A stretch of DNA of 58,930 nt, counting the filler. It is 6 parts of 6 records of this genome, joined end to end, with 100 filler letters (N's around TTAATTAATTAA, not from the genome) between each part and the next. Parts side by side here need not be neighbours in the genome. Positions count along the whole stretch, not along the records: positions 17,864 to 24,045 come from SRR31156797_24157; 5 more parts are not named here. One strand, given 5' to 3'. The position numbers were made by a program, and so were the translations under genes. Positions 15,065 through 23,634 of the stretch are shown one piece after another. The notes beneath the pieces were generated by a model that searched no databases, was not told the DNA's origin, and saw nothing but the letters and a program-made list of their open reading frames with translations. Position 1 is the stretch's first letter. Each line of letters begins with the position of its first letter.

Positions 15065-15811
15065 TTATTTTCGGTGGAGCCTGATGTAGTCGCTGGGGCT
15101 CGTACCCGTTTCCTTCCGGAACAGGGCGGCGAAGTGGCGGCTGCTGCGATAGCCCAGGCCCGAACTGATCTCCTTTATATTGAGGTTGCTGTTCTCCATC
15201 AGGTCTCGCGCGGCGGCGATCCTCTTGTCGGTGATGTAGCGGGTGAAGGCCTTGCCCGTATGGCGTCGGAACAGGCTGCTCAGGTAGTTGGGCGTGACAT
15301 TCAGGTCGTAGGCCACCTGGGCGATGCCTAGTTCCTCTTTATAGCGTTTGCCGATGATTCTGACGGCCCGGTCCACAAGGGCCGATCCCGAGCTCTCCCC
15401 GGACTCCCCTCCCTCTCCCGGCATATCTGTCTGAGGGAAGCGCTTGTTTTCGGGCAGCAGTTTTTCCGCCCGCTCCAGGGCGGCCAGGAGCTCTTCGCTT
15501 GAAGGGGGTTTCAGGAGGTAGTCCAGGGCTCCCAGTTTCAGGGCGCTTCGGGCGTATTCGAAGTCGGCGTGGCCTGTCAGGATGATCCAGTGACCCTCCT
15601 CATCCCTCAGCTCCTCCATGGCCTCCAATCCGCTGCAGCCCGGCATCCGGATATCCGCCAGCACCAGGTCGGGTTTTTCCCTCCTGAAACGTCTTATCAG
15701 CTGGCGTCCCCCCGAGGCCTCCAGGATCTCCGCCTCCAGAGGGCTTTTCTCGATCATGTCCCTGAGGGTGAAGCGGATCAGCTCTTCGTCGTCGGCAATC
15801 AGGATCTTCAT
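15065..15811 (-). CDS. Response regulator, REC + AraC HTH (YesN-like)
   Basis: ILIADDE, DIRMPG, YLLKP; PNYLSSLFRRHTG...FRKETGTSPSDY. Confidence 0.9.
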   Translation of the reverse strand: MKILIADDEELIRFTLRDMIEKSPLEAEILEASGGRQLIRRFRREKPDLVLADIRMPGCSGLEAMEELRDEEGHWIILTGHADFEYARSALKLGALDYLLKPPSSEELLAALERAEKLLPENKRFPQTDMPGEGGESGESSGSALVDRAVRIIGKRYKEELGIAQVAYDLNVTPNYLSSLFRRHTGKAFTRYITDKRIAAARDLMENSNLNIKEISSGLGYRSSRHFAALFRKETGTSPSDYIRLHRK

Positions 15812-17718
15812 TCCGCCTCTCCCTTGGTCTCTTTTATGCGGATCAGCACCCTCGTGCCTTTGCCTTCGGCGCTGTTCAGGATCATCTCGGAACCGGGAAA
15901 GGCCATGCCCAGGCGTTCCCTCACGTTGCGGGTTCCTATACCCTCGTTCTCTTTCTGAGGATCGAAGCCGCAGCCGTCGTCCTCGACCTTTATGAGGATA
16001 TGGTCGTCATCCCGCTCCGCCAGGAGGCTGAGGGTGCCGCCCTCTTCCAGGGGCTCCAGCCCGTGGATGACGGCGTTCTCGACCAGGGGCTGAAGCAGCA
16101 GCCTGGGGATCATGAAATCCCCCAGCTCCCGGTCGGCCTTCAGTTCGTAATCCAGTCTGTCTGAGAAGCGGATCTTCTGGAGCTCGCAGTAGTTTTTCAG
16201 GAAGTCCAGTTCCTCCTTCAGTGTCGTCAGATGCTTCTGGTCCGTGACGTAACGGAGCATCTCCCGCAGGGAGAGTATGGCCGCTTCGAGCCTGTCCGCG
16301 GCGCCCATGCGGTTCAGGCCGATGAATCCGCTGAGGATGTTGTAGATGAAGTGGGGCTGGACCTGGGACTGGAGGGCCCAGTACTGGGCTTCCCTGTTCT
16401 CCAGGAGCTCGCCGTACTTCAGATGGTTCTCCAGGGTGAGGGAGACGTATTCGGCGAAGTTGACCATCCTGGTGACGCCCAGGTCGGAGAACTGCTCCTC
16501 CCGTGTTCGCATAAGGGTCAGGAGGAATCCTATGCTCTCTCCCTTGAGCTTCAGGGGCAGGGCCATCGCGTCCCCGGGGGAAACGGGTGCCAATGCCTCG
16601 GACATAATGCGCCGGTCTGTCTTCGCTACGATCGACTCCCCCTTCTTCAGCTTCGGTATGCAGGGGAAGGCGCTTTCCAGGGTTTCGGGTAGGCCTTCCG
16701 TATTTCCGCTGCCGGACTTCAGTTTATAGCTGTGGTCGTTCGAATGATAGAGATAGACGGCCGCCGCATCGGCCCGGGTGTCCTTGATGATAGCATCGGC
16801 GGTCAGCTGCAGCATATGCTGCAGGCTCGTCTCCTCCGGCCGGGCCTGTCCCATGTCCCGGGTCAGGTTCAGGATGCTGTTGATATTCTCCTTCAGATCG
16901 GTGGACAGCTCGTTGACGCTCAGGAGCAGGGCCGACAGCTCGTCCCTGTCCTCGCTTTTATAGGTGGTGCTGAAGTCTCCCTTAGCGATATTCTCAAAGG
17001 CGTGGCCCAGGTTCTGTATTTTCAGAAGGATCTGACGTGAGAATACCAGGGCGTAGCCCAGGGCCAGGGCCGAAGAGAGGATGCTGATCAGCAGAAACTG
17101 AAGATAGAGCTCCTGCTCCAGTTTCTCGCTCTGCTTCTTGAAGGAGCTGAAGAAGTGGTTCATATAGCTTTCGAATGTATTGGTGAAGTAGAAGGAGGTC
17201 TCTCTGAATTCGTCGAAGAAGGGGATCAGCGTTTCGTCCTTCTGCATGATGATGTAAAGATCGGTCCCTCCCGTATCCATATTCTGGAGCCGGCTCATGA
17301 TCTCCGACATATTGTAGAGCTTGTCCAGGGCCTTTTCGTTCAGGGTCAGGGCGGTCCCGTAAAGATCCTGGAGCTCGTCGTCCTGGAGGATGGTCAGCTC
17401 CCGGTTGACGATGAACTCATTGAAGATGCTCTGGTAGGCGGAGACGGCGTTCATCCACTCCCTGTAGGCGGCGACGGAGCGGGGCGCATAGGTCAGGGCC
17501 CTGATCTGTCCGTACATTCTGGGAGCGAAGAGGTCGAAGGTGATGTCCTTCATCAGGCCTATCACGTTCCGGGAGTGGGTCTGGAGCTGCTGGCCCAGGA
17601 GGATGGTGTGGTTAAGGCTCTGGAGGCGGTTCCAGTTCCACAGGGCCAGGCTCGTGATGGTGCCGAGGGAGCAGAACATGAGGAGGCTGAGGATCAGCAG
17701 TTTCTTTCGTATACTCAT
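15808..17718 (-). CDS. LytS/YesM-type sensor histidine kinase with HAMP and GAF-like domain
   Basis: Two TM segments, HAMP, ALQSQVQPHFIYN, LLQPLVENAVIHG, VEDDGCG, GIGTRNVRERL; 4-bp overlap with the response regulator. Confidence 0.88.
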   Translation of the reverse strand: MSIRKKLLILSLLMFCSLGTITSLALWNWNRLQSLNHTILLGQQLQTHSRNVIGLMKDITFDLFAPRMYGQIRALTYAPRSVAAYREWMNAVSAYQSIFNEFIVNRELTILQDDELQDLYGTALTLNEKALDKLYNMSEIMSRLQNMDTGGTDLYIIMQKDETLIPFFDEFRETSFYFTNTFESYMNHFFSSFKKQSEKLEQELYLQFLLISILSSALALGYALVFSRQILLKIQNLGHAFENIAKGDFSTTYKSEDRDELSALLLSVNELSTDLKENINSILNLTRDMGQARPEETSLQHMLQLTADAIIKDTRADAAAVYLYHSNDHSYKLKSGSGNTEGLPETLESAFPCIPKLKKGESIVAKTDRRIMSEALAPVSPGDAMALPLKLKGESIGFLLTLMRTREEQFSDLGVTRMVNFAEYVSLTLENHLKYGELLENREAQYWALQSQVQPHFIYNILSGFIGLNRMGAADRLEAAILSLREMLRYVTDQKHLTTLKEELDFLKNYCELQKIRFSDRLDYELKADRELGDFMIPRLLLQPLVENAVIHGLEPLEEGGTLSLLAERDDDHILIKVEDDGCGFDPQKENEGIGTRNVRERLGMAFPGSEMILNSAEGKGTRVLIRIKETKGEAE

Positions 17719-17863: not shown

Positions 17864-18025
17864 TAAAGTTCCATAGTTTACACCCAACTGCTCAGATGCT
17901 TTCTTTAATCCAATTTCATCGGACAGCTTTAATGCCTGTTCTTTAAACTCTTTACTGTACTGTTTCATACTCATACCCTTATATTCTCGGGTATTTTTAG
18001 ACTGCACTTTTATGATAATCCTTCA
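17864..18025 (-). mobile_element. Left end and orfA start of an IS3-family element (cut by contig end)
   Basis: MKQYSKEFKEQALKL...ASEQLGVNYGTL HTH; minus-strand end begins 5'-TGAAGGATTATCATAAAAGTGCAG at 18025 (IS3 ends start TG). Confidence 0.72.
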
Positions 18026-18794
18026 CTTCTCCGCATATTGAGCCTCAGCTCCAAGCTCTTCAATTCGCTCGTTAATCCTTTCGATTTTTGCTTCAAGTTC
18101 CAATATAGCGGTGTAATATTCGTTGAATACTTCCTGGTGAATATCCTCTTCAAAGGTTAGTGTTTTCATCCATTTATGAAAAATTCCCGTCCAGTATCGG
18201 TTACTGGTGGGATATCTCTTTCCCAGTCGGAGAAGGAACTGCATCATCCGTTGTTTGTGGCGCTTCAAATCTTTTCTCATGTCGTTACAAATTCGTAGAT
18301 AATCCCGAACAGCCTCATCTGAATGGGTTGGGATGTATACATTGACAATTTCCTGGTTTCGTAGAGCCTTTGCCAGCAGAACAGCATCTCTGCTGTCGGT
18401 TTTGATTTTGTCTCCGGGTTTCCGAGGGAGCATTGAGGAATGCTGCCACATGGCAGGTGATATCCATCTCTTCCAGCTGCCTGTAAATGACATACCCGGT
18501 CGGACCTGCTTCATAGCAGCAGATAATATTAGTTGATTTCTCTTTGAGCTGGGTGAAGTACTTTTTGATTTTTCCCGGTTCATTCTTTATTTGTCGTTCA
18601 AACTCGATGGTCCGACTATTATCCCTGATTACCGCCAGGGAAACTGTCTCTTTGTGGACATCCATTCCGACATAAAATATACTGTTCATAGTGACCTCCG
18701 TTGATTTGTATGTGGCGTGCTTGCATTTTCTGGTAACTAAATGATGTTAGCTAATCCACGAGTTTGCAAACACGGGGGTCACTTCATATTGTCT
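18026..18794 (-). pseudogene. IS110-family recombinase/transposase remnant with non-coding left end; frameshifted and truncated by the IS3 insertion
   Basis: MNSIFYVGMDVHKETV, CCYEAGPTG (ORF 18315-18689) continue in another frame as PRKPGDKIKTDSRDA...VYIPT (ORF 18023-18583); frameshift near 18440; C-terminal domain absent. Confidence 0.85.
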
Positions 18795-18879
18795 ACACCA
18801 CGCACACGATCATAGCAACGCTATTCCAAATTAATCAAATTTATTGAAAAGAAAAGTACATTCCTTTGGAATGTTGGGG

Positions 18880-18908
18880 TTGACATCTATGTTAATATTT
18901 TTTATCAT
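18880..18908 (+). promoter_or_regulatory. sigma70 promoter upstream of leader copy 1
   Basis: TTGACA (18880-18885), N17, TATCAT (18903-18908). Confidence 0.65.
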
Positions 18909-18919
18909 TTTATGATAAA

Positions 18920-19165
18920 TGAAGTAAGTCTTCAGACTACCTTCTTGGCGAGCTATTTGACGTATAAGTGTGGCAGTTAGTAAACTAAGAAAAACAGGAA
19001 AATGAAGGTTGAAAAATTTGTTAATTAGAACTGGGGTTTATCCAGGGTCTCTCGTAGAGGCAATGGAGTATACTATATTGATGGTATAAAGTGAGTCGAA
19101 AGGCGAAGCTTAGGCACTCTAACTCTATAATCTTCATGATTGTAGAGTTAGAGTGCCTTTTTTTT
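18920..19165 (+). ncRNA. Candidate cis-regulatory structured RNA leader, copy 1 (core 19025-19165)
   Basis: Four hairpins, then a 21-bp terminator stem (19112-19158) and T-tract, 32 nt before the opuAA-like ATG; homologous to 19983-20217. Confidence 0.78.
19112..19165 (+). terminator. Intrinsic terminator within leader copy 1
   Basis: AGGCACTCTAACTCTATAATC-TTCAT-GATTGTAGAGTTAGAGTGCCT followed by T-run. Confidence 0.88.
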
Positions 19166-19197
19166 ATGCCCCAACGATTTTCGAGGAGAAATAAATA

Positions 19198-19740
19198 ATG
19201 GCACTAGTAGAAGTAAGGGATCTTTACAAGATTTTTGCTACAAATTCTAAACGCACTATTCCGATGATAAAGGAAGGATTGTCGAAACAGGATGCACTAA
19301 TGAAATTAACAGTGCTACATTTAACATTCACAAAAATGAAACCGTTGTAGTTATGGGGCTTTCAGGTAGCGGTATGTTTACATTTATTAGATGCCAAAAT
19401 AGATTGATTAAGCCCACCGCCAGCCAAATCCTTATTGACGGTGATGATATTGTCAAAAAGGAGTCTCAAAAACTTCAAGAATTAAGACGCCGAAAGATGT
19501 CCATGGTATTTCAGAGCTTTGGGCTACTTCCCCATCGAAACGTTATAGCCAGTGTGGAATTCGGCCAGGAGCTTAGTGATATTGATAAGGTTATGCGCCG
19601 GGAAAAAGCAATGTAGGTCTTGAAGCTTGTCGGTCTTGAGGGGTTTGTATTCAGCCTCCCCAAGGAGGGAGCTTTCCGGAGGGATGCAGCAAAGGAGTGG
19701 CTTGGTTATAGCTTTTGCAAATAATCCTGAGCATCTTTAA
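19198..19740 (+). pseudogene. opuAA: Glycine betaine/proline ABC transporter ATPase (OpuAA/ProV) pseudogene
   Basis: GAGGAG RBS; MALVEVRDLYKIF start; frameshift near 19305; degenerate Walker A (MGLSGSGMFT); MVFQSFGLLPHR; TAG at 19614-19616; frameshifted LSGGMQQR...ANNPE remnant; 3' half and permease missing. Confidence 0.85.
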
Positions 19741-19764
19741 TACATTATAATGTGAGGTATCTAT

Positions 19765-19911
19765 ATAGAAGAAAGAATTGTTCTTATTTGCCCAGAATGC
19801 AAAGTAGAGCTGAAAACAGAAAAAAGTTTAGACATTGAAAATGGAAGCTTTCGTTGTCCTTCTTGTGGGAAACGTGTTCAAATGACAATGAAGAAGAAAA
19901 AGAGAAGATAG
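19765..19911 (+). CDS. 48-aa zinc-ribbon-like small protein (ATA start, non-canonical or mutated)
   Basis: GAGGT RBS, then ATA-EERIVLICPECKVELKTEKSLDIENGSFRCPSCGKRVQMTMKKKKRR-TAG; two CxxC knuckles; absent from the ORF track. Confidence 0.55.
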   Translation: MEERIVLICPECKVELKTEKSLDIENGSFRCPSCGKRVQMTMKKKKRR

Positions 19912-19982
19912 AAACTTTTCTCTTTTAAATAACAAAACCTATATTAAGGGCTTTTGATTAAGCTCTCTATATCAAACAAAGG

Positions 19983-20217
19983 TGAAGTAATTCAACTTAG
20001 TACCATTCTGGTGAGACTGCCAATGTAGATGCAGTGGTAGATCGAACCGGTAAATTAAAAGGGAAATGTGGAGTGAAAAATTTTTATTTAGAACTGGGGT
20101 TTATTCAGGGTCTTTTTTAGGCAATGGATTATACTACACCACGTGGTATAAAGTGAGTCGCAAGGCGAAACTTAAGCACTCTAACTCTATGAAAAATAGG
20201 GTTGGGGTGTTTTTTTT
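19983..20217 (+). ncRNA. Candidate cis-regulatory structured RNA leader, copy 2 (core 20088-20217)
   Basis: Same hairpin series as copy 1 with structure-preserving changes; terminator ends 26 nt before the KamA-family ATG. Confidence 0.8.
20174..20217 (+). terminator. Intrinsic terminator within leader copy 2
   Basis: AAGCACTCTAACTCTAT-GAAAA-ATAGGGTTGGGGTGTTT (17 bp, 4 G-U) followed by T-run. Confidence 0.82.
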
Positions 20218-20243
20218 ATCCCACCCGTAAACCGGGAGGCGTA

Positions 20244-21419
20244 ATGCTCACGACGATGAATGAATTAAAAAACAATTGGCAGGCAAATCAAATGCACTGG
20301 ACGGAGGAATTGCAACACAATATAACCTCTGTGGATAAGCTCAAGGTGTATCTGCCGATCAGCCCAAAGGAAGAGGCTGATATCCGGCGGATTTGCGATA
20401 TCCATCCAATGAACATCCCCAGATACTATCTATCCCTAATCGATCCCGATAATCCCGAAGATCCAATTAGGAAACTGGCTATACCTGTTAGCGATGAATT
20501 GATAGTGGCCGGAAAGATGGGTGAAACCACCGCCGATCCCTATGGAGACGATAAACACAACATGGGAAACGGTATTTTGCATAAATATCCCTATTCCGCC
20601 CTGGTGGTGGCCACCGAGTATTGCTCCATGTACTGTCGGCACTGCTTCAGGAAGAGGCTGGTGGGGCTCCCAAATGATCAGACGGTAAAAAACTTCCTCA
20701 ATGCCGTGGAGTACATCAAGGAGCATAAAGAGATAACGAATGTGATTATCTCCGGCGGGGATCCCCTGCTGCTGCCTACAGAGATACTAAAGAAGATGTT
20801 GACCCCGCTTATGGAGATCGATCATGTCAACTATGTTCGTATCGGAAGCCGGGCTCCGGTGGTATTCCCTCATCGCTTTTTTGAAGATGATCTTTTAGAT
20901 TTCTTTGAGGCATTTAACCTGTCAAAAACTCTATATCTGCCCACCCACTTCAACCATGCAAACGAGATTACCCCACTGGCGATTGAGGCGGTTTCCAGGA
21001 TAAGGCAAACCGGTACCACCGTAAACAACCAGGCGGTATTCCTGCGCGGAGTCAATGACACCCCCGAAGCTCTTGAGAATTTAATGAACGGTCTGGTAAG
21101 GATCGGGATCAACCCCTACTACCTGTATCAGTGTATGCCAGTGGAAAGGGTGAGAAGCCATTTCCAGATTCCCCTGAAGGAGGGTATCGATACGGTAACC
21201 GCCGCCAAAAGCCGATTGGACGGATATGCCAAGCGATTCAAATTCATCATGGGCCACGATTCCGGGAAAATTGAAATATGCGGACGTCATAAGGATACCC
21301 TGATTATGAGCCGGATTCATGCACGCCCCGAGGGTGTTGATGAGGAGTCTATTCTCCTGCGAAAGCTGAATGAGTCCGGCGGATGGCTGGAAGACTTTTC
21401 ACCGATTAATGGCAAATGA
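20244..21419 (+). CDS. KamA-family radical SAM, PLP-dependent 2,3-aminomutase (substrate uncertain)
   Basis: GGAGG before ATG 20244; DPIRK, HKYP, CSMYCRHCFRKR (CxxxCxxC), ISGGDPL, RIGSR, THFNH, NQAVFLRGVND, PYYLYQC, SGKIEI (probable PLP Lys). Confidence 0.9.
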   Translation: MLTTMNELKNNWQANQMHWTEELQHNITSVDKLKVYLPISPKEEADIRRICDIHPMNIPRYYLSLIDPDNPEDPIRKLAIPVSDELIVAGKMGETTADPYGDDKHNMGNGILHKYPYSALVVATEYCSMYCRHCFRKRLVGLPNDQTVKNFLNAVEYIKEHKEITNVIISGGDPLLLPTEILKKMLTPLMEIDHVNYVRIGSRAPVVFPHRFFEDDLLDFFEAFNLSKTLYLPTHFNHANEITPLAIEAVSRIRQTGTTVNNQAVFLRGVNDTPEALENLMNGLVRIGINPYYLYQCMPVERVRSHFQIPLKEGIDTVTAAKSRLDGYAKRFKFIMGHDSGKIEICGRHKDTLIMSRIHARPEGVDEESILLRKLNESGGWLEDFSPINGK

Positions 21420-21519: not shown

Positions 21520-23634
21520 ATGGAAAATGAAGATATCTCACTAACGACAATATACGGGTCCAATCTGTTTAGCAATTCCGTCTTACAGGAAAGGCTGCCT
21601 CAGAAGGACTTTGAAACGATAAAGAAAGTACAACGCGGAGAGGAAAAGCTTTCCCGAGAACTCAGCGCCAAGGTAGCGGTGGCCATGAAAGAGTGGGCCC
21701 TGGAAAAAGGCGCCACCCACTATAGCCACTGGTTTCACCCCATGACAGGAGCCACAGCAGAAAAGCACGACTCTTTTATCGAGCCAACCGCCGAAGGTAA
21801 TGTGCTACTCGATTTCTCCGCAGATTCGCTTCTGCAGGGTGAACCGGATGCCTCCTCGTTCCCTTCGGGAGGCCTGCGGGAGACCTTTGAGGCCCGTGGA
21901 TATACCGCCTGGGATACCACCAGTCCCGCTTTTCTAAGAGACGATGGAGCCGGCAAAACCCTGACAATTCCCACGGCTTTCATATCCTACGATGGCCATA
22001 GTCTGGATACCAAAACACCGTTGTTAAAATCCATAAATGCCCTGAGCGTACAGGCCAGGAGAGTGTTAATGTCCCTGGGAATGGAGGATGTGAAAACTGT
22101 CATCCCAACAGTAGGGCCTGAACAGGAGTACTTCCTGGTGGACAGAAAGTTTTACGAAAAACGACCGGACCTGCTGCTCACGGGACGGACAATCTTCGGC
22201 TCCATGCCCGCTAAGGGGCAAGAGCTTGATGACCACTACTTCGGAGCCATCAAGGATCGTGTAAAAAGATTCATGAAGGACTTAAACGAAGAGCTCTGGA
22301 AGCTCGGAATTAGCGCTAAAACACAACACAACGAGGTGGCGCCTAATCAGTTTGAATTGGCGACAGTGTTCAGCACCGCTAATATTGCAACCGACAACAA
22401 TCAAATATGTATGGAGATTATGCAGCGGGTTGCAGAGCGTCACGACCTGGTCTGTCTGCTCCACGAAAAACCCTTTCACGGATTCAATGGTTCCGGTAAG
22501 CACAACAACTGGTCGCTTTCAACCGATGGAGGTGTGAATCTTCTCACTCCGGGGGACGATCCCGGCTCTAACACGCGTTTTCTCCTTTTCCTCGTCTCTA
22601 TTATAAAAGCGGTCGATCTATATGCGCCCTTGCTACGCCTCTCCGCCGCCAACCGGGGAAATGATCTGCGGTTGGGAGGTCATGAGGCGCCCCCAGCAGT
22701 AATAAGTGTTTATCTTGGTGATTTGCTCACTGAAATCCTCGAAGGCTTGGGGTGCGGTGAGGATGTAGAGTGCCAGGATCAGGGATATCTGAAGACGGGA
22801 ACCTCCAATCTTCCACGGCTCCCCAAGGATACCTCCGACAGGAATAGGACCAGCCCCTTCGCCTTTACAGGTAATAAATTCGAATTTCGGATGGTTCCTT
22901 CTTCAGGCTCTATCGCTGAACCCAACATAGTCCTCAACACCGCAGTAGCTGATGTTCTGGCCGAAATGGCCGAAAGACTAGAGCAAAGCACCGACACAGA
23001 AAAAGCCGCCAGGGCCATGGTGAAAGAATACTACAACAAGCACCACAGAATTATATTCAACGGCGATGGTTATTCAGACACCTGGGCAGAAGAGGCTCGT
23101 CACCGTGGACTTCCCTGTTTTCAAACCACCATTGATGTACTTCCGGAACTTGTAAAACCTTACACCCGGGACCTCTTTCGCAGACGTAAGGTATTCACTG
23201 AGCAGGAACTGGAATCTCGGCTCAATGTGTACCTTGAGCGGTATATAAAAGAGGTCAATATCGAAGCTGCGGTGGCGGTGGAGATGACGGAAAGGCAGAT
23301 AATTCCCGCAGCCCTTGGCTATGCCGGTGGCATTGCAGAATCCCTGAATCGAAGTAAGACGATCATTCCTGATCTGGATATTTCGGAAGAGCAAAGCCTT
23401 TTGTCAATGATTCATGCGGATACCCGCGAGTTAATCAAACTGGCCGCCAAGCTGGAAAGGGAGCGCAGTGAACTCCTTGGTGAAGAAAACCTGCATCGGC
23501 AGGGAGAGGGTTTCAAAGAAGCTGTCCTCCCCCTGCTGGAAGAACTGCGGACCAGAGCAGATTCACTGGAAAAACGATTATCCAAAGAAGCCTGGCCCTT
23601 TCCCGGGTATGAGGACCTGCTCTTTCGCTTGTAA
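21520..23634 (+). CDS. glnN: Glutamine synthetase type III
   Basis: 704 aa; GATHYSHWFHPMTG-TAEKHDSF, EPDASSFPSGG, GPEQEYFL, HNEVAPNQFE, HEKPF-GFNGSGKHNNWS, DRNRTSPFAFTGNKFEFR, WPFPGY. Confidence 0.94.
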   Translation: MENEDISLTTIYGSNLFSNSVLQERLPQKDFETIKKVQRGEEKLSRELSAKVAVAMKEWALEKGATHYSHWFHPMTGATAEKHDSFIEPTAEGNVLLDFSADSLLQGEPDASSFPSGGLRETFEARGYTAWDTTSPAFLRDDGAGKTLTIPTAFISYDGHSLDTKTPLLKSINALSVQARRVLMSLGMEDVKTVIPTVGPEQEYFLVDRKFYEKRPDLLLTGRTIFGSMPAKGQELDDHYFGAIKDRVKRFMKDLNEELWKLGISAKTQHNEVAPNQFELATVFSTANIATDNNQICMEIMQRVAERHDLVCLLHEKPFHGFNGSGKHNNWSLSTDGGVNLLTPGDDPGSNTRFLLFLVSIIKAVDLYAPLLRLSAANRGNDLRLGGHEAPPAVISVYLGDLLTEILEGLGCGEDVECQDQGYLKTGTSNLPRLPKDTSDRNRTSPFAFTGNKFEFRMVPSSGSIAEPNIVLNTAVADVLAEMAERLEQSTDTEKAARAMVKEYYNKHHRIIFNGDGYSDTWAEEARHRGLPCFQTTIDVLPELVKPYTRDLFRRRKVFTEQELESRLNVYLERYIKEVNIEAAVAVEMTERQIIPAALGYAGGIAESLNRSKTIIPDLDISEEQSLLSMIHADTRELIKLAAKLERERSELLGEENLHRQGEGFKEAVLPLLEELRTRADSLEKRLSKEAWPFPGYEDLLFRL

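Follow-up and report, generated by a model that had tools for sequence, protein, structure and literature searches.

A two-domain leader RNA upstream of compatible-solute genes, a candidate riboswitch-type attenuator for osmotic stress

When bacteria lose turgor, a physical stress has to be turned into a change of gene expression, and this step is understood only in part. The osmotic regulators known to us are mostly proteins, to which the cyclic di-AMP (c-di-AMP) and Na+-I riboswitches have to be added. The stretch of DNA analysed here (58,930 nucleotides, hereafter the window) raises the question of whether a further RNA has a part in this control. It carries two copies of a structured leader of ~250 nucleotides (18919-19166 and 19982-20219), which a first-pass annotation had proposed as an unrecognised osmotic-stress riboswitch that attenuates transcription. 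Searches of Rfam, of homologous sequences, of gene context and of covariation all support a transcription-attenuating leader, and its status as a riboswitch is that of a candidate. We describe it as a candidate new orphan riboswitch-type attenuator, for which the comparative support is unusually strong, and a strong candidate for a sensor of osmotic stress.

The two copies share one architecture, as first proposed, and the helices listed for it can all be drawn on both. They align over ~300 nucleotides with 81% column identity (alignment A1), and their core regions with 87% identity over 149 columns (alignment A2). Both fold more stably than dinucleotide shuffles (z = -6.74 for copy 1 and -4.45 for copy 2), and no equally stable shuffle was found among 200 for either copy. 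Covariance models, including one built from both copies (R1), detect exactly two full-length sites in the window. Consensus scans also recover the TTGACA-N17-TATCAT promoter of copy 1 and the terminator hairpins of both copies that had been read from the sequence (Table 1). Homologues have TTGA..-N17-TATA.. at the position equivalent to the copy 1 promoter; for copy 2, the consensus scans gave no promoter-like site. The terminator stems comprise 20 pairs in copy 1 and 17 pairs in copy 2 and, each followed by its T-run, have the features of intrinsic terminators. The start codons are an ATG at 19198 (copy 1) and an ATG at 20244 (copy 2, with the ribosome-binding site (RBS) GGGAGG), ~31 and ~24 nucleotides past the T-runs, respectively.

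The leader does not belong to a catalogued RNA family. No match to Rfam 15 was found in the whole window at gathering thresholds, and at E<=10 the region 18700-20400 gave only 13 weak matches, all far below the gathering scores, the best of which are microRNA-precursor models lying on the terminator hairpin. Nothing was found on the leaders of 12 homologous loci at E<=1, and the models of the c-di-AMP (RF00379), Na+-I (RF03071), T-box (RF00230), lysine (RF00168) and glycine RNAs have no match in the window or in these 12 loci. The proposal of novelty, which had been made by eye from the absence of known riboswitch consensus sequences, thus stands. A search of the literature found no description of this RNA, and unnamed entries in supplementary motif lists fall outside that search. 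One homologous locus (L119) has a thiamine pyrophosphate riboswitch (RF00059, 71.5 bits) ~200 nucleotides upstream of the leader, on the opposite strand (444-540, - strand), which is unrelated to it.

Two orphan structured RNAs reported upstream of glycine-betaine/proline-type ATP-binding cassette (ABC) transporters, the proX motif (PMC8632094) and the opuB motif (PMC11109978), resemble the leader in position. Both are riboswitch candidates of the Breaker laboratory, proposed to respond to osmoprotectants or c-di-AMP and described as acting by RBS occlusion; the proX motif is described from Spiribacter (17 representatives) and the opuB motif from Enterobacteriaceae (205 representatives), where the ligand is reportedly connected with the metabolism of shikimate and aromatic amino acids. 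At the level of these text descriptions, the leader differs in having a terminator, in occurring in spirochaetes and AT-rich contigs, and in also preceding AblAB and BCCT genes.

The leader is not confined to the window. We searched 80 loci encoding relatives of the aminomutase behind copy 2, and R1 matches three of them (L001-L003) at 109-135 bits, on the coding strand and directly upstream of the orthologous gene. These three are the best protein matches (~70% identity) and come from metagenome-assembled genomes (MAGs) of uncultured Spirochaetales, Spirochaetaceae and Spirochaetia. The RNA was detected with a broader model (R2) in none of the other 77 loci, which are from other phyla, indicating that it travels with a lineage and a physiological theme and not with the enzyme. 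In a same-class sample, nine of the 151 genomes match at E<=0.001, eight of them over the full length; the match in G093 looks, on reading the sequence, like a terminator only. A phylum sample gave three matches in 151 genomes at the same threshold, full-length only in G001, with the terminator-only look again in G093 and a match of 31 bits in G206. No further instance was found in the order of G001, the family of G142 or the orders of G073 and G033.

A scan of metagenomes yielded a further 30 contigs. The search pattern consisted of two conserved motifs joined by a gap, and thereby fixed both strands of the helix P1 discussed below. Several of the contigs duplicate spirochaete MAG loci, and most of the others are much more AT-rich and of unknown taxon; an atlas search with the AblA protein of one of the loci (L093) was uninformative for their taxonomy. 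No viral contig matched a pattern that leaves the terminator arm free. In total we collected 41 instances, among them those from nine spirochaete genomes and the 30 contigs. Their 3' domains comprise 31 distinct sequences, and the scores are 55-139 bits over these genomes and contigs. Homologues of the leader elsewhere, whose absence was to have pointed to a local duplication, therefore exist.

The genes behind these instances form one theme. The downstream gene is readable in 37 of the 41 instances (in four the contig ends before any gene), and all 37 lie immediately upstream, on the same strand, of genes for the synthesis or uptake of compatible solutes. With the downstream open reading frames (ORFs) clustered by blastp and the clusters named from representatives, the first gene encodes an AblA/KamA aminomutase in 16 instances, the ProV ATPase of an OpuA-type ABC system in 14, a BCCT betaine-type transporter in three, an SBP_bac_3 polar amino-acid ABC system in two, and an AblB-like GNAT acetyltransferase or an OpuAC binding protein followed by ProV in one each. 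The two polar amino-acid ABC systems are counted here because they presumably also handle compatible solutes. The AblA of L093 passes the lysine 2,3-aminomutase equivalog (751 bits). The aminomutase is followed by an AblB-type GNAT in nine loci and by a ligase resembling type III glutamine synthetase (GSIII) in the spirochaete set, and in many loci genes for a BPD_transp_1 permease and an OpuAC binding protein come after ProV. The context is thus uniform, and not the random one that a chance element would have. Upstream of the leader, no gene and no dedicated regulator is conserved across unrelated loci.

In three loci (L098, 7815-9374; also L107 and L120), ablA-ablB is followed on the same strand by a 115-amino-acid PII-like protein and a Na+/H+ exchanger. 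PII-like c-di-AMP receptors exist, and through these two genes the regulon may be connected with c-di-AMP or with cation homeostasis. No second element matching Rfam was found in the 375-nucleotide gap of L098.

The structure of the leader was examined by covariation, separately for its two domains. For the 3' domain we used 31 distinct rows (A5) in a model-fitted alignment; the fit to the tested structure favours that structure, and inspection of the raw sequences by eye clearly shows the helices as well. Paired cells reach 95.6%, as compared with 86.1% in shuffles, and double-change cells number 143 against 39.5; none of 500 shuffles reaches either value (slid controls, 31-43%). Two-sided changes occur in all five pairs of the outer part of P2 (RYYYA/URRRY), in three of the four pairs of its inner part, in six of the eight pairs of P3 (99.1% of cells paired), and in all four outer and one of the three inner pairs of P4. 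The terminator stem covaries or wobbles in the homologues (95.4% of cells paired).

The helices P2 (GUCU/AGGC), P3 and P4 of the first-pass annotation are therefore confirmed, and three of its details are not. What was taken for a conserved linker, AATGGA, is the AA of a GG/AA internal loop followed by UGGA, the 3' strand of the covarying outer part of P2. The GNRA tetraloop of P4 is not conserved in homologues. The pairing CUGGG/YCCAG, originally named P1 and given as a core helix, can form in 92.9% of cells but shows one-sided G-C/G-U changes only, and its 3' strand is the 5' strand of the outer part of P2, where every pair covaries. We rejected it as a core helix; it is possibly an alternative conformer, and P1 denotes a different helix from here on. 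A GAAC/GUUU mini-hairpin predicted by RNAalifold from two sequences is broken by a U-to-C change in the GGGGCUU variants and was left out of R2.

The weaker homology that had been noticed upstream of the core is real and corresponds to a conserved, covarying 5' domain. For 27 distinct leaders in a plain MAFFT alignment (A6), RNAalifold gives a rod of four helices, A (columns 9-16/125-132), B (22-24/118-120), C (26-31/94-98) and D (37-42/82-87). All 21 predicted pairs have two-sided changes, and 82.9% of cells are paired as compared with 54.4% in shuffles (slid controls, 36-45%). Double-change cells number 177, as compared with 65.9, and none of 500 shuffles reaches the observed values. Covariation is thus strong in both domains. 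A model of the 5' domain (R3) recovers it in the same eight genomes and at all loci, in each case immediately before the 3' domain. A stand-alone match in G034 (33 bits), without P2-P4 or a terminator, looks coding by eye and was discarded.

The conserved nucleotides of the 5' domain concentrate in its internal loops. RUGAAGUA stands opposite GAAAAA at the base of the rod. The loop between helices A and B combines GAGUA with GAAA, that between C and D combines GYGAG with YRAA, and the distal loop is variable in both length and sequence. We take the AGUA/GAA loops to carry the sarcin-ricin/loop-E signature and the GAN/UAA-type loops to be tertiary-contact modules, and use these terms as labels only. 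A GA/GAA-type internal loop occurs once in each domain, in P4 and in the 5' rod. Three ProV-associated leaders (L088-L090, ~1501-1734) have a shortened rod that lacks GYGAG/YRAA, together with a remodelled P3 and P4 that lack the GA/GAA loop. This joint loss of both loops, a single event, hints at a contact between them or at a shared role.

Two further observations concern the 5' domain. In L085 (~1399-1500), two identical copies of AAUCAUAG, one after UGAAGUA and the other just before GGAAAU, are both possible partners for the 3' strand of helix A (UUAUGAUU); an alternative fold of the 5' domain is possible, and is clear in this one sequence only. A minimal ORF can be read in the first nine nucleotides of the domain (18919-18927 and 19982-19990; A6 columns 1-9) in 24 of the 27 distinct leaders, and consists of an AUG, GUG or UUG start, a codon AAG, AAC or AAU, and a UAA or UAG stop. 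It is probably a by-product of the RNA motif, since no Shine-Dalgarno sequence was seen by eye upstream of it and column 9 also pairs in helix A.

How the leader could control transcription is suggested by two stretches that flank P2-P4. UAGAACUGGGGYUU, just before P2, is near-invariant, and so is the 5' arm of the terminator, ARGCACUCUAACUCUA. The 3' arm of the terminator drifts by A/G changes, from U-A to U-G 13, 6 and 6 times at three pairs, so the contrast between a fixed 5' arm and a drifting 3' arm, first seen in the two copies, extends over the homologues. A second pairing role of the 5' arm had been suggested on this ground, and one of its two proposed partners survives. The pairing TCTAA/TTAGA is retained within a helix that we call P1 (UAGA/UCUA plus GGGG(YUU)/(ARGC)ACUC), a proposed antiterminator that shares a strand with the terminator. 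The other, ACUCUAU/AUGGAGU, requires a G that is present in copy 1 only, other rows having AUGGAUU or a more different sequence, and was rejected. When the RNAs are cut before the 3' arm of the terminator, 29 of the 30 distinct ones fold with a four-way junction around P2-P4 that is closed by UAGA/UCUA. Among the conserved loops, no kissing-loop or pseudoknot partner for CUGGGG was found by eye.

The two states differ widely in predicted stability. The terminator state has -59.4 kcal/mol in copy 1 and -47.0 kcal/mol in copy 2, the P1 state -30.8 and -27.2 kcal/mol, and P2-P4 alone -23.2 and -19.6 kcal/mol. P1 thus contributes ~-7.6 kcal/mol, as compared with -21 to -34 for the terminator.

Like riboswitches in general, the leader has a covarying structured domain and lies on the same strand upstream of related genes (37 of 37 readable instances). 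On balance, we think it somewhat probable that it is a two-domain, cis-acting element that controls read-through into compatible-solute genes and works as an ON switch for a signal of osmotic stress. That P1 is the antiterminator, that the polarity is ON and that a ligand is bound directly is what we infer from the pairing, the energies and the genes. Transcription would start a few nucleotides before RUGAAGUA, as judged from the position of the promoter, after which the 5' domain would fold as the four-helix rod and the 3' domain would form P2, P3 and P4. By default the operon would be off, because the terminator is very stable. Upon a signal of hyperosmotic stress, UAGAACUGGGGYUU and the 5' arm of the terminator would pair as P1, giving a closed four-way junction P1-P4 that excludes the terminator; as P1 is weak by comparison, a bound effector would have to lock the junction, possibly with docking of the 5' rod, and read-through would follow. 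The gene set points to a general osmotic signal rather than to one metabolite. Our guess at the effector would be a monovalent cation or ionic strength (K+ or Na+) first, and then c-di-AMP, with the opposite polarity.

The Na+-I riboswitch (RF03071) offers a parallel for this design. It likewise has an intrinsic terminator, lies upstream of ablA and other osmoprotectant genes and belongs to the theme of salt and osmotic stress; in Na+-I and, by the proposed P1 pairing, also in the leader, one shoulder of the terminator is part of the aptamer, an arrangement from which ON logic would be expected. The leader differs from it in that no covariance-model match exists and in that the Rfam model has 55 positions, as compared with two domains of ~250 nucleotides in total and a single terminator. 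No Na+-I riboswitch was found in the five RNA-bearing genomes tested. In Dehalobacter sp. CF, ablA is controlled by a Na+-I (ON) and a c-di-AMP (OFF) riboswitch in tandem (PMC9337991).

Several points weigh against the ON switch as drawn here. Covariation in P1 amounts to one pair and three cells, probably from two events, which is next to none (C occurs at column 16 only with G at column 182, in three of three cases). Because both strands are nearly invariant, the folding of truncated RNAs with P1 is not independent evidence. The invariance of P1 in the 30 metagenome loci is circular, since the search pattern fixed both strands, and only the window copies and the nine genome matches are unbiased in this respect. 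In L087, the one divergent case, P1 is only partly kept and is absent from the minimum-energy fold, and the terminator has compensating changes for those in the arm. The CUGGG/YYCAG hairpin, as widely pairable as stated above, makes possible an OFF design in which the antiterminator strand is sequestered. Lastly, loop-E-like and GA-rich loops are also typical platforms for protein binding, and the effector may be a protein instead of a small molecule or ion.

The first of the competing explanations, an OFF switch for c-di-AMP, is possible, if on the doubtful side. At low c-di-AMP, as upon osmotic upshift, the UAGAACUGGGG strand would pair with the 5' arm of the terminator and allow read-through; at high c-di-AMP, the folded aptamer of both domains would withdraw this strand, and the terminator would form. 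The GA/GAA-type loop that occurs once per domain recalls the two pseudo-symmetric sites of ydaO, and the PII-like protein and Na+/H+ exchanger after ablAB in L098, L107 and L120 would also fit. The set of OpuA-type, BCCT and AblAB genes matches the osmotic-stress and osmolyte-related genes described as under c-di-AMP control, ablA included (PMC9337991, PMC8632094). A DAC-domain cyclase is encoded in all nine spirochaete genomes with the RNA, and the classical riboswitch RF00379 was found in none of the nine; these genomes are partly incomplete MAGs. As the DAC domain is nearly universal (11 of 14 control genomes), its presence says little, and these counts, together with that for Na+-I (0 of 5), leave the niche open and nothing more. 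Like the leader, the ydaO/yuaA RNA (RF00379) is large, has repeated sub-structures, uses a transcription terminator as its platform and controls an overlapping regulon. It differs in its OFF polarity, ours being ON in the preferred reading, and neither a model match nor a conserved sequence shared by eye connects the two RNAs. An antiterminator of ~-7.6 kcal/mol facing a terminator of 15-20 base pairs fits default termination better than default read-through, and the unpaired AC in the 5' arm of the terminator is conserved, where an OFF design would let it vary.

It is unlikely, in our estimate, that the RNA senses cytoplasmic K+ or ionic strength directly, as an 'RNA osmometer' that requires no organic ligand and in which the rod docks and P1 locks. 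On this account, the rise in cation after an osmotic upshift would cause the loop-E-rich rod to dock on the four-way junction, perhaps via the matching GA/GAA loops of C/D and P4; the weak P1 would thereby be locked, and uptake and synthesis of compatible solutes would be switched on. If true, this would provide an RNA counterpart of the classical induction of proU by K+-glutamate and the first riboswitch class for the primary osmotic signal.

We assign an equally low likelihood to an attenuator that depends on a protein or another trans-acting factor, bound by the loop-E-like and GA/GAA loops, including a T-box-like version that senses tRNA. An RNA-binding protein of this kind would be encoded elsewhere, follow the osmotic state in its activity and stabilise the antiterminator or the terminator. 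AGUA/GAA-type and GA-rich loops serve as protein-binding or tRNA-presenting modules in other RNAs; they are repeated in the 5' rod, and ~250 nucleotides would be large for an ion sensor. A protein would, however, have to travel with an element found both in spirochaetes and on very AT-rich contigs, and beside this element no two unrelated loci share a regulator gene. The layout of a stem I-like rod followed by a terminator does resemble a T-box (RF00230): both RNAs have a long 5' rod with purine-rich AGUA/GAA-type loops, then a competition between terminator and antiterminator with a sequence-conserved 5' arm of the terminator, over a length of 230-280 nucleotides. Against a tRNA-sensing version, there is no match to the T-box model at E<=10 and no T-box sequence, the UGGA being a strand of a covarying helix, and the genes are not related to aminoacyl-tRNA. 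A specifier loop is absent, as the stretch where its codon would lie, the eight nucleotides after GAAA, pairs with the eight after UGAAGUA to form helix A, in which all eight pairs have two-sided changes (80.5% of cells paired, as compared with 52.1% in shuffles). The conserved distal loop of T-boxes is absent as well.

That the terminated leader of ~250 nucleotides is itself the product, a trans-acting small RNA or a sponge, with the genes expressed only by leak-through, we hold to be very improbable. In copy 1, it is true, the promoter is still near consensus, the leader intact and the 20-base-pair terminator perfect, although the proV gene behind them has decayed. That decay may be recent, because remnant and intact ProV still share 73% identity, and an invariable position immediately upstream of an osmoprotectant gene on the same strand (37 of 37 readable instances) is the signature of control in cis. 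A local duplication with a constitutive terminator and no regulatory role, which could be imagined for copies 1.1 kb apart beside IS110 fragments and a pseudogene, is scarcely credible and, with a chance terminator, ruled out by the homologues in nine genomes and 30 contigs (55-139 bits), the compensatory changes in eight helices and the uniform genes.

The genes behind the two copies in the window belong to the same theme. With the intact ProV of L089 as the tblastn query, the decayed proV/opuAA remnant behind copy 1 covers residues 29-214, the best piece at 73% identity; the match runs through two frames and an in-frame stop, and nothing remains of the C-terminal half. An 87-amino-acid fragment of it matches the NCBIfam proV model at E 2.8e-29. 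The remnant has no permease or binding protein, yet the leader, promoter and terminator in front of it are intact. The aminomutase behind copy 2 scores above the cut-off of the family model TIGR00238 (268.5 bits) and below those of all the lysine, glutamate and arginine aminomutase equivalogs. The GSIII-like ligase that follows it is also found behind the aminomutase in L001-L003, and this pair occurs in only three of the 80 loci, namely these leader-bearing spirochaete ones; in other phyla, the aminomutase loci have no conserved downstream partner. A possible product of the KamA-GSIII pair is an amidated beta-amino-acid osmolyte, for instance beta-glutamine.

A short open frame at 19753-19911, after the proV remnant and before copy 2, encodes two CxxC pairs (..CPEC..CPSC..) and a tail rich in Lys and Arg. 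It has no ATG, GTG or TTG start after the preceding stop and is possibly what is left of a zinc ribbon. Just upstream of copy 1 is a fragment of an IS110-family transposase (18023-18689, - strand; DEDD_Tnp_IS110, below the Pfam cut-off), adjoined by an ORF without a family; both fit local rearrangement and gene decay. A sensor kinase (HAMP, GAF, His_kinase/HATPase) and an AraC-type response regulator (15065-17718, - strand) are encoded 1.2 kb upstream of copy 1 along the window, and this pair is not conserved beside the element in other loci. The G+C content of the window is uneven, 0.38-0.47 over 18-50 kb as compared with 0.53-0.63 at 6-18 kb and 50-58 kb, which could reflect a mosaic formed by horizontal transfer or an assembly chimera.

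Table 1 Elements of the two leader copies and the genes behind them, in positions along the window
Feature	Position	Strand	Evidence or remark
Copy 1 promoter, TTGACA-17 nt-TATCAT	18880-18908	+	11/12 consensus positions
Copy 1 5' domain, rod of helices A-D	18919-19016	+	model R3, 84.5 bits; covariation
Copy 1 UAGAACUGGGGUUU, proposed 5' strand of antiterminator P1	19026-19039	+	near-invariant in all homologues
Copy 1 P2	19040-19068	+	outer AUCCA/UGGA(G), GG/AA internal loop, inner GUCUCU/AGAGGC
Copy 1 P3 hairpin, UAUACUAU/AUGGUAUA	19069-19088	+	covariation
Copy 1 P4 hairpin with GA/GAA internal loop (AAGU-GA-GUC...GGC-GAA-GCUU)	19089-19111	+	covariation
Copy 1 intrinsic terminator	19112-19166 (hairpin 19113-19157)	+	-34.3 kcal/mol alone; T-run follows
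Copy 1 terminator 5' arm, proposed 3' strand of P1	19112-19127	+	
Decayed proV/opuAA (betaine ABC ATPase) remnant, behind copy 1	19198-19737	+	tblastn, NCBIfam
Copy 2 5' domain	19982-20080	+	model R3, 102.2 bits; covariation
Copy 2 UAGAACUGGGGUUU, proposed 5' strand of P1	20089-20102	+	
Copy 2 P2	20103-20129	+	
Copy 2 P3	20130-20150	+	
Copy 2 P4	20151-20173	+	
Copy 2 intrinsic terminator	20174-20219 (hairpin 20174-20212)	+	-20.7 kcal/mol alone; T-run follows
Copy 2 terminator 5' arm, proposed 3' strand of P1	20174-20189	+	
KamA-family radical-SAM amino-acid 2,3-aminomutase, first gene behind copy 2	20244-21419	+	TIGR00238, Pfam Radical_SAM
Type III glutamine-synthetase-like ligase, second gene of the operon	21520-23634	+	GSIII_N 4.8e-71, Gln-synt_C, Gln-synt_C-ter

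The leader thus stands in front of OpuA-type ABC, BCCT, AblAB, KamA-GSIII and polar amino-acid ABC genes, in genomes that have neither the c-di-AMP riboswitch RF00379 nor, where tested, the Na+-I riboswitch. If it does bind a ligand, the identity of that ligand would name the intracellular signal of osmotic stress in the bacteria that carry it, and the leader would then represent a further riboswitch class and supply a compact genetic part that responds to salt.

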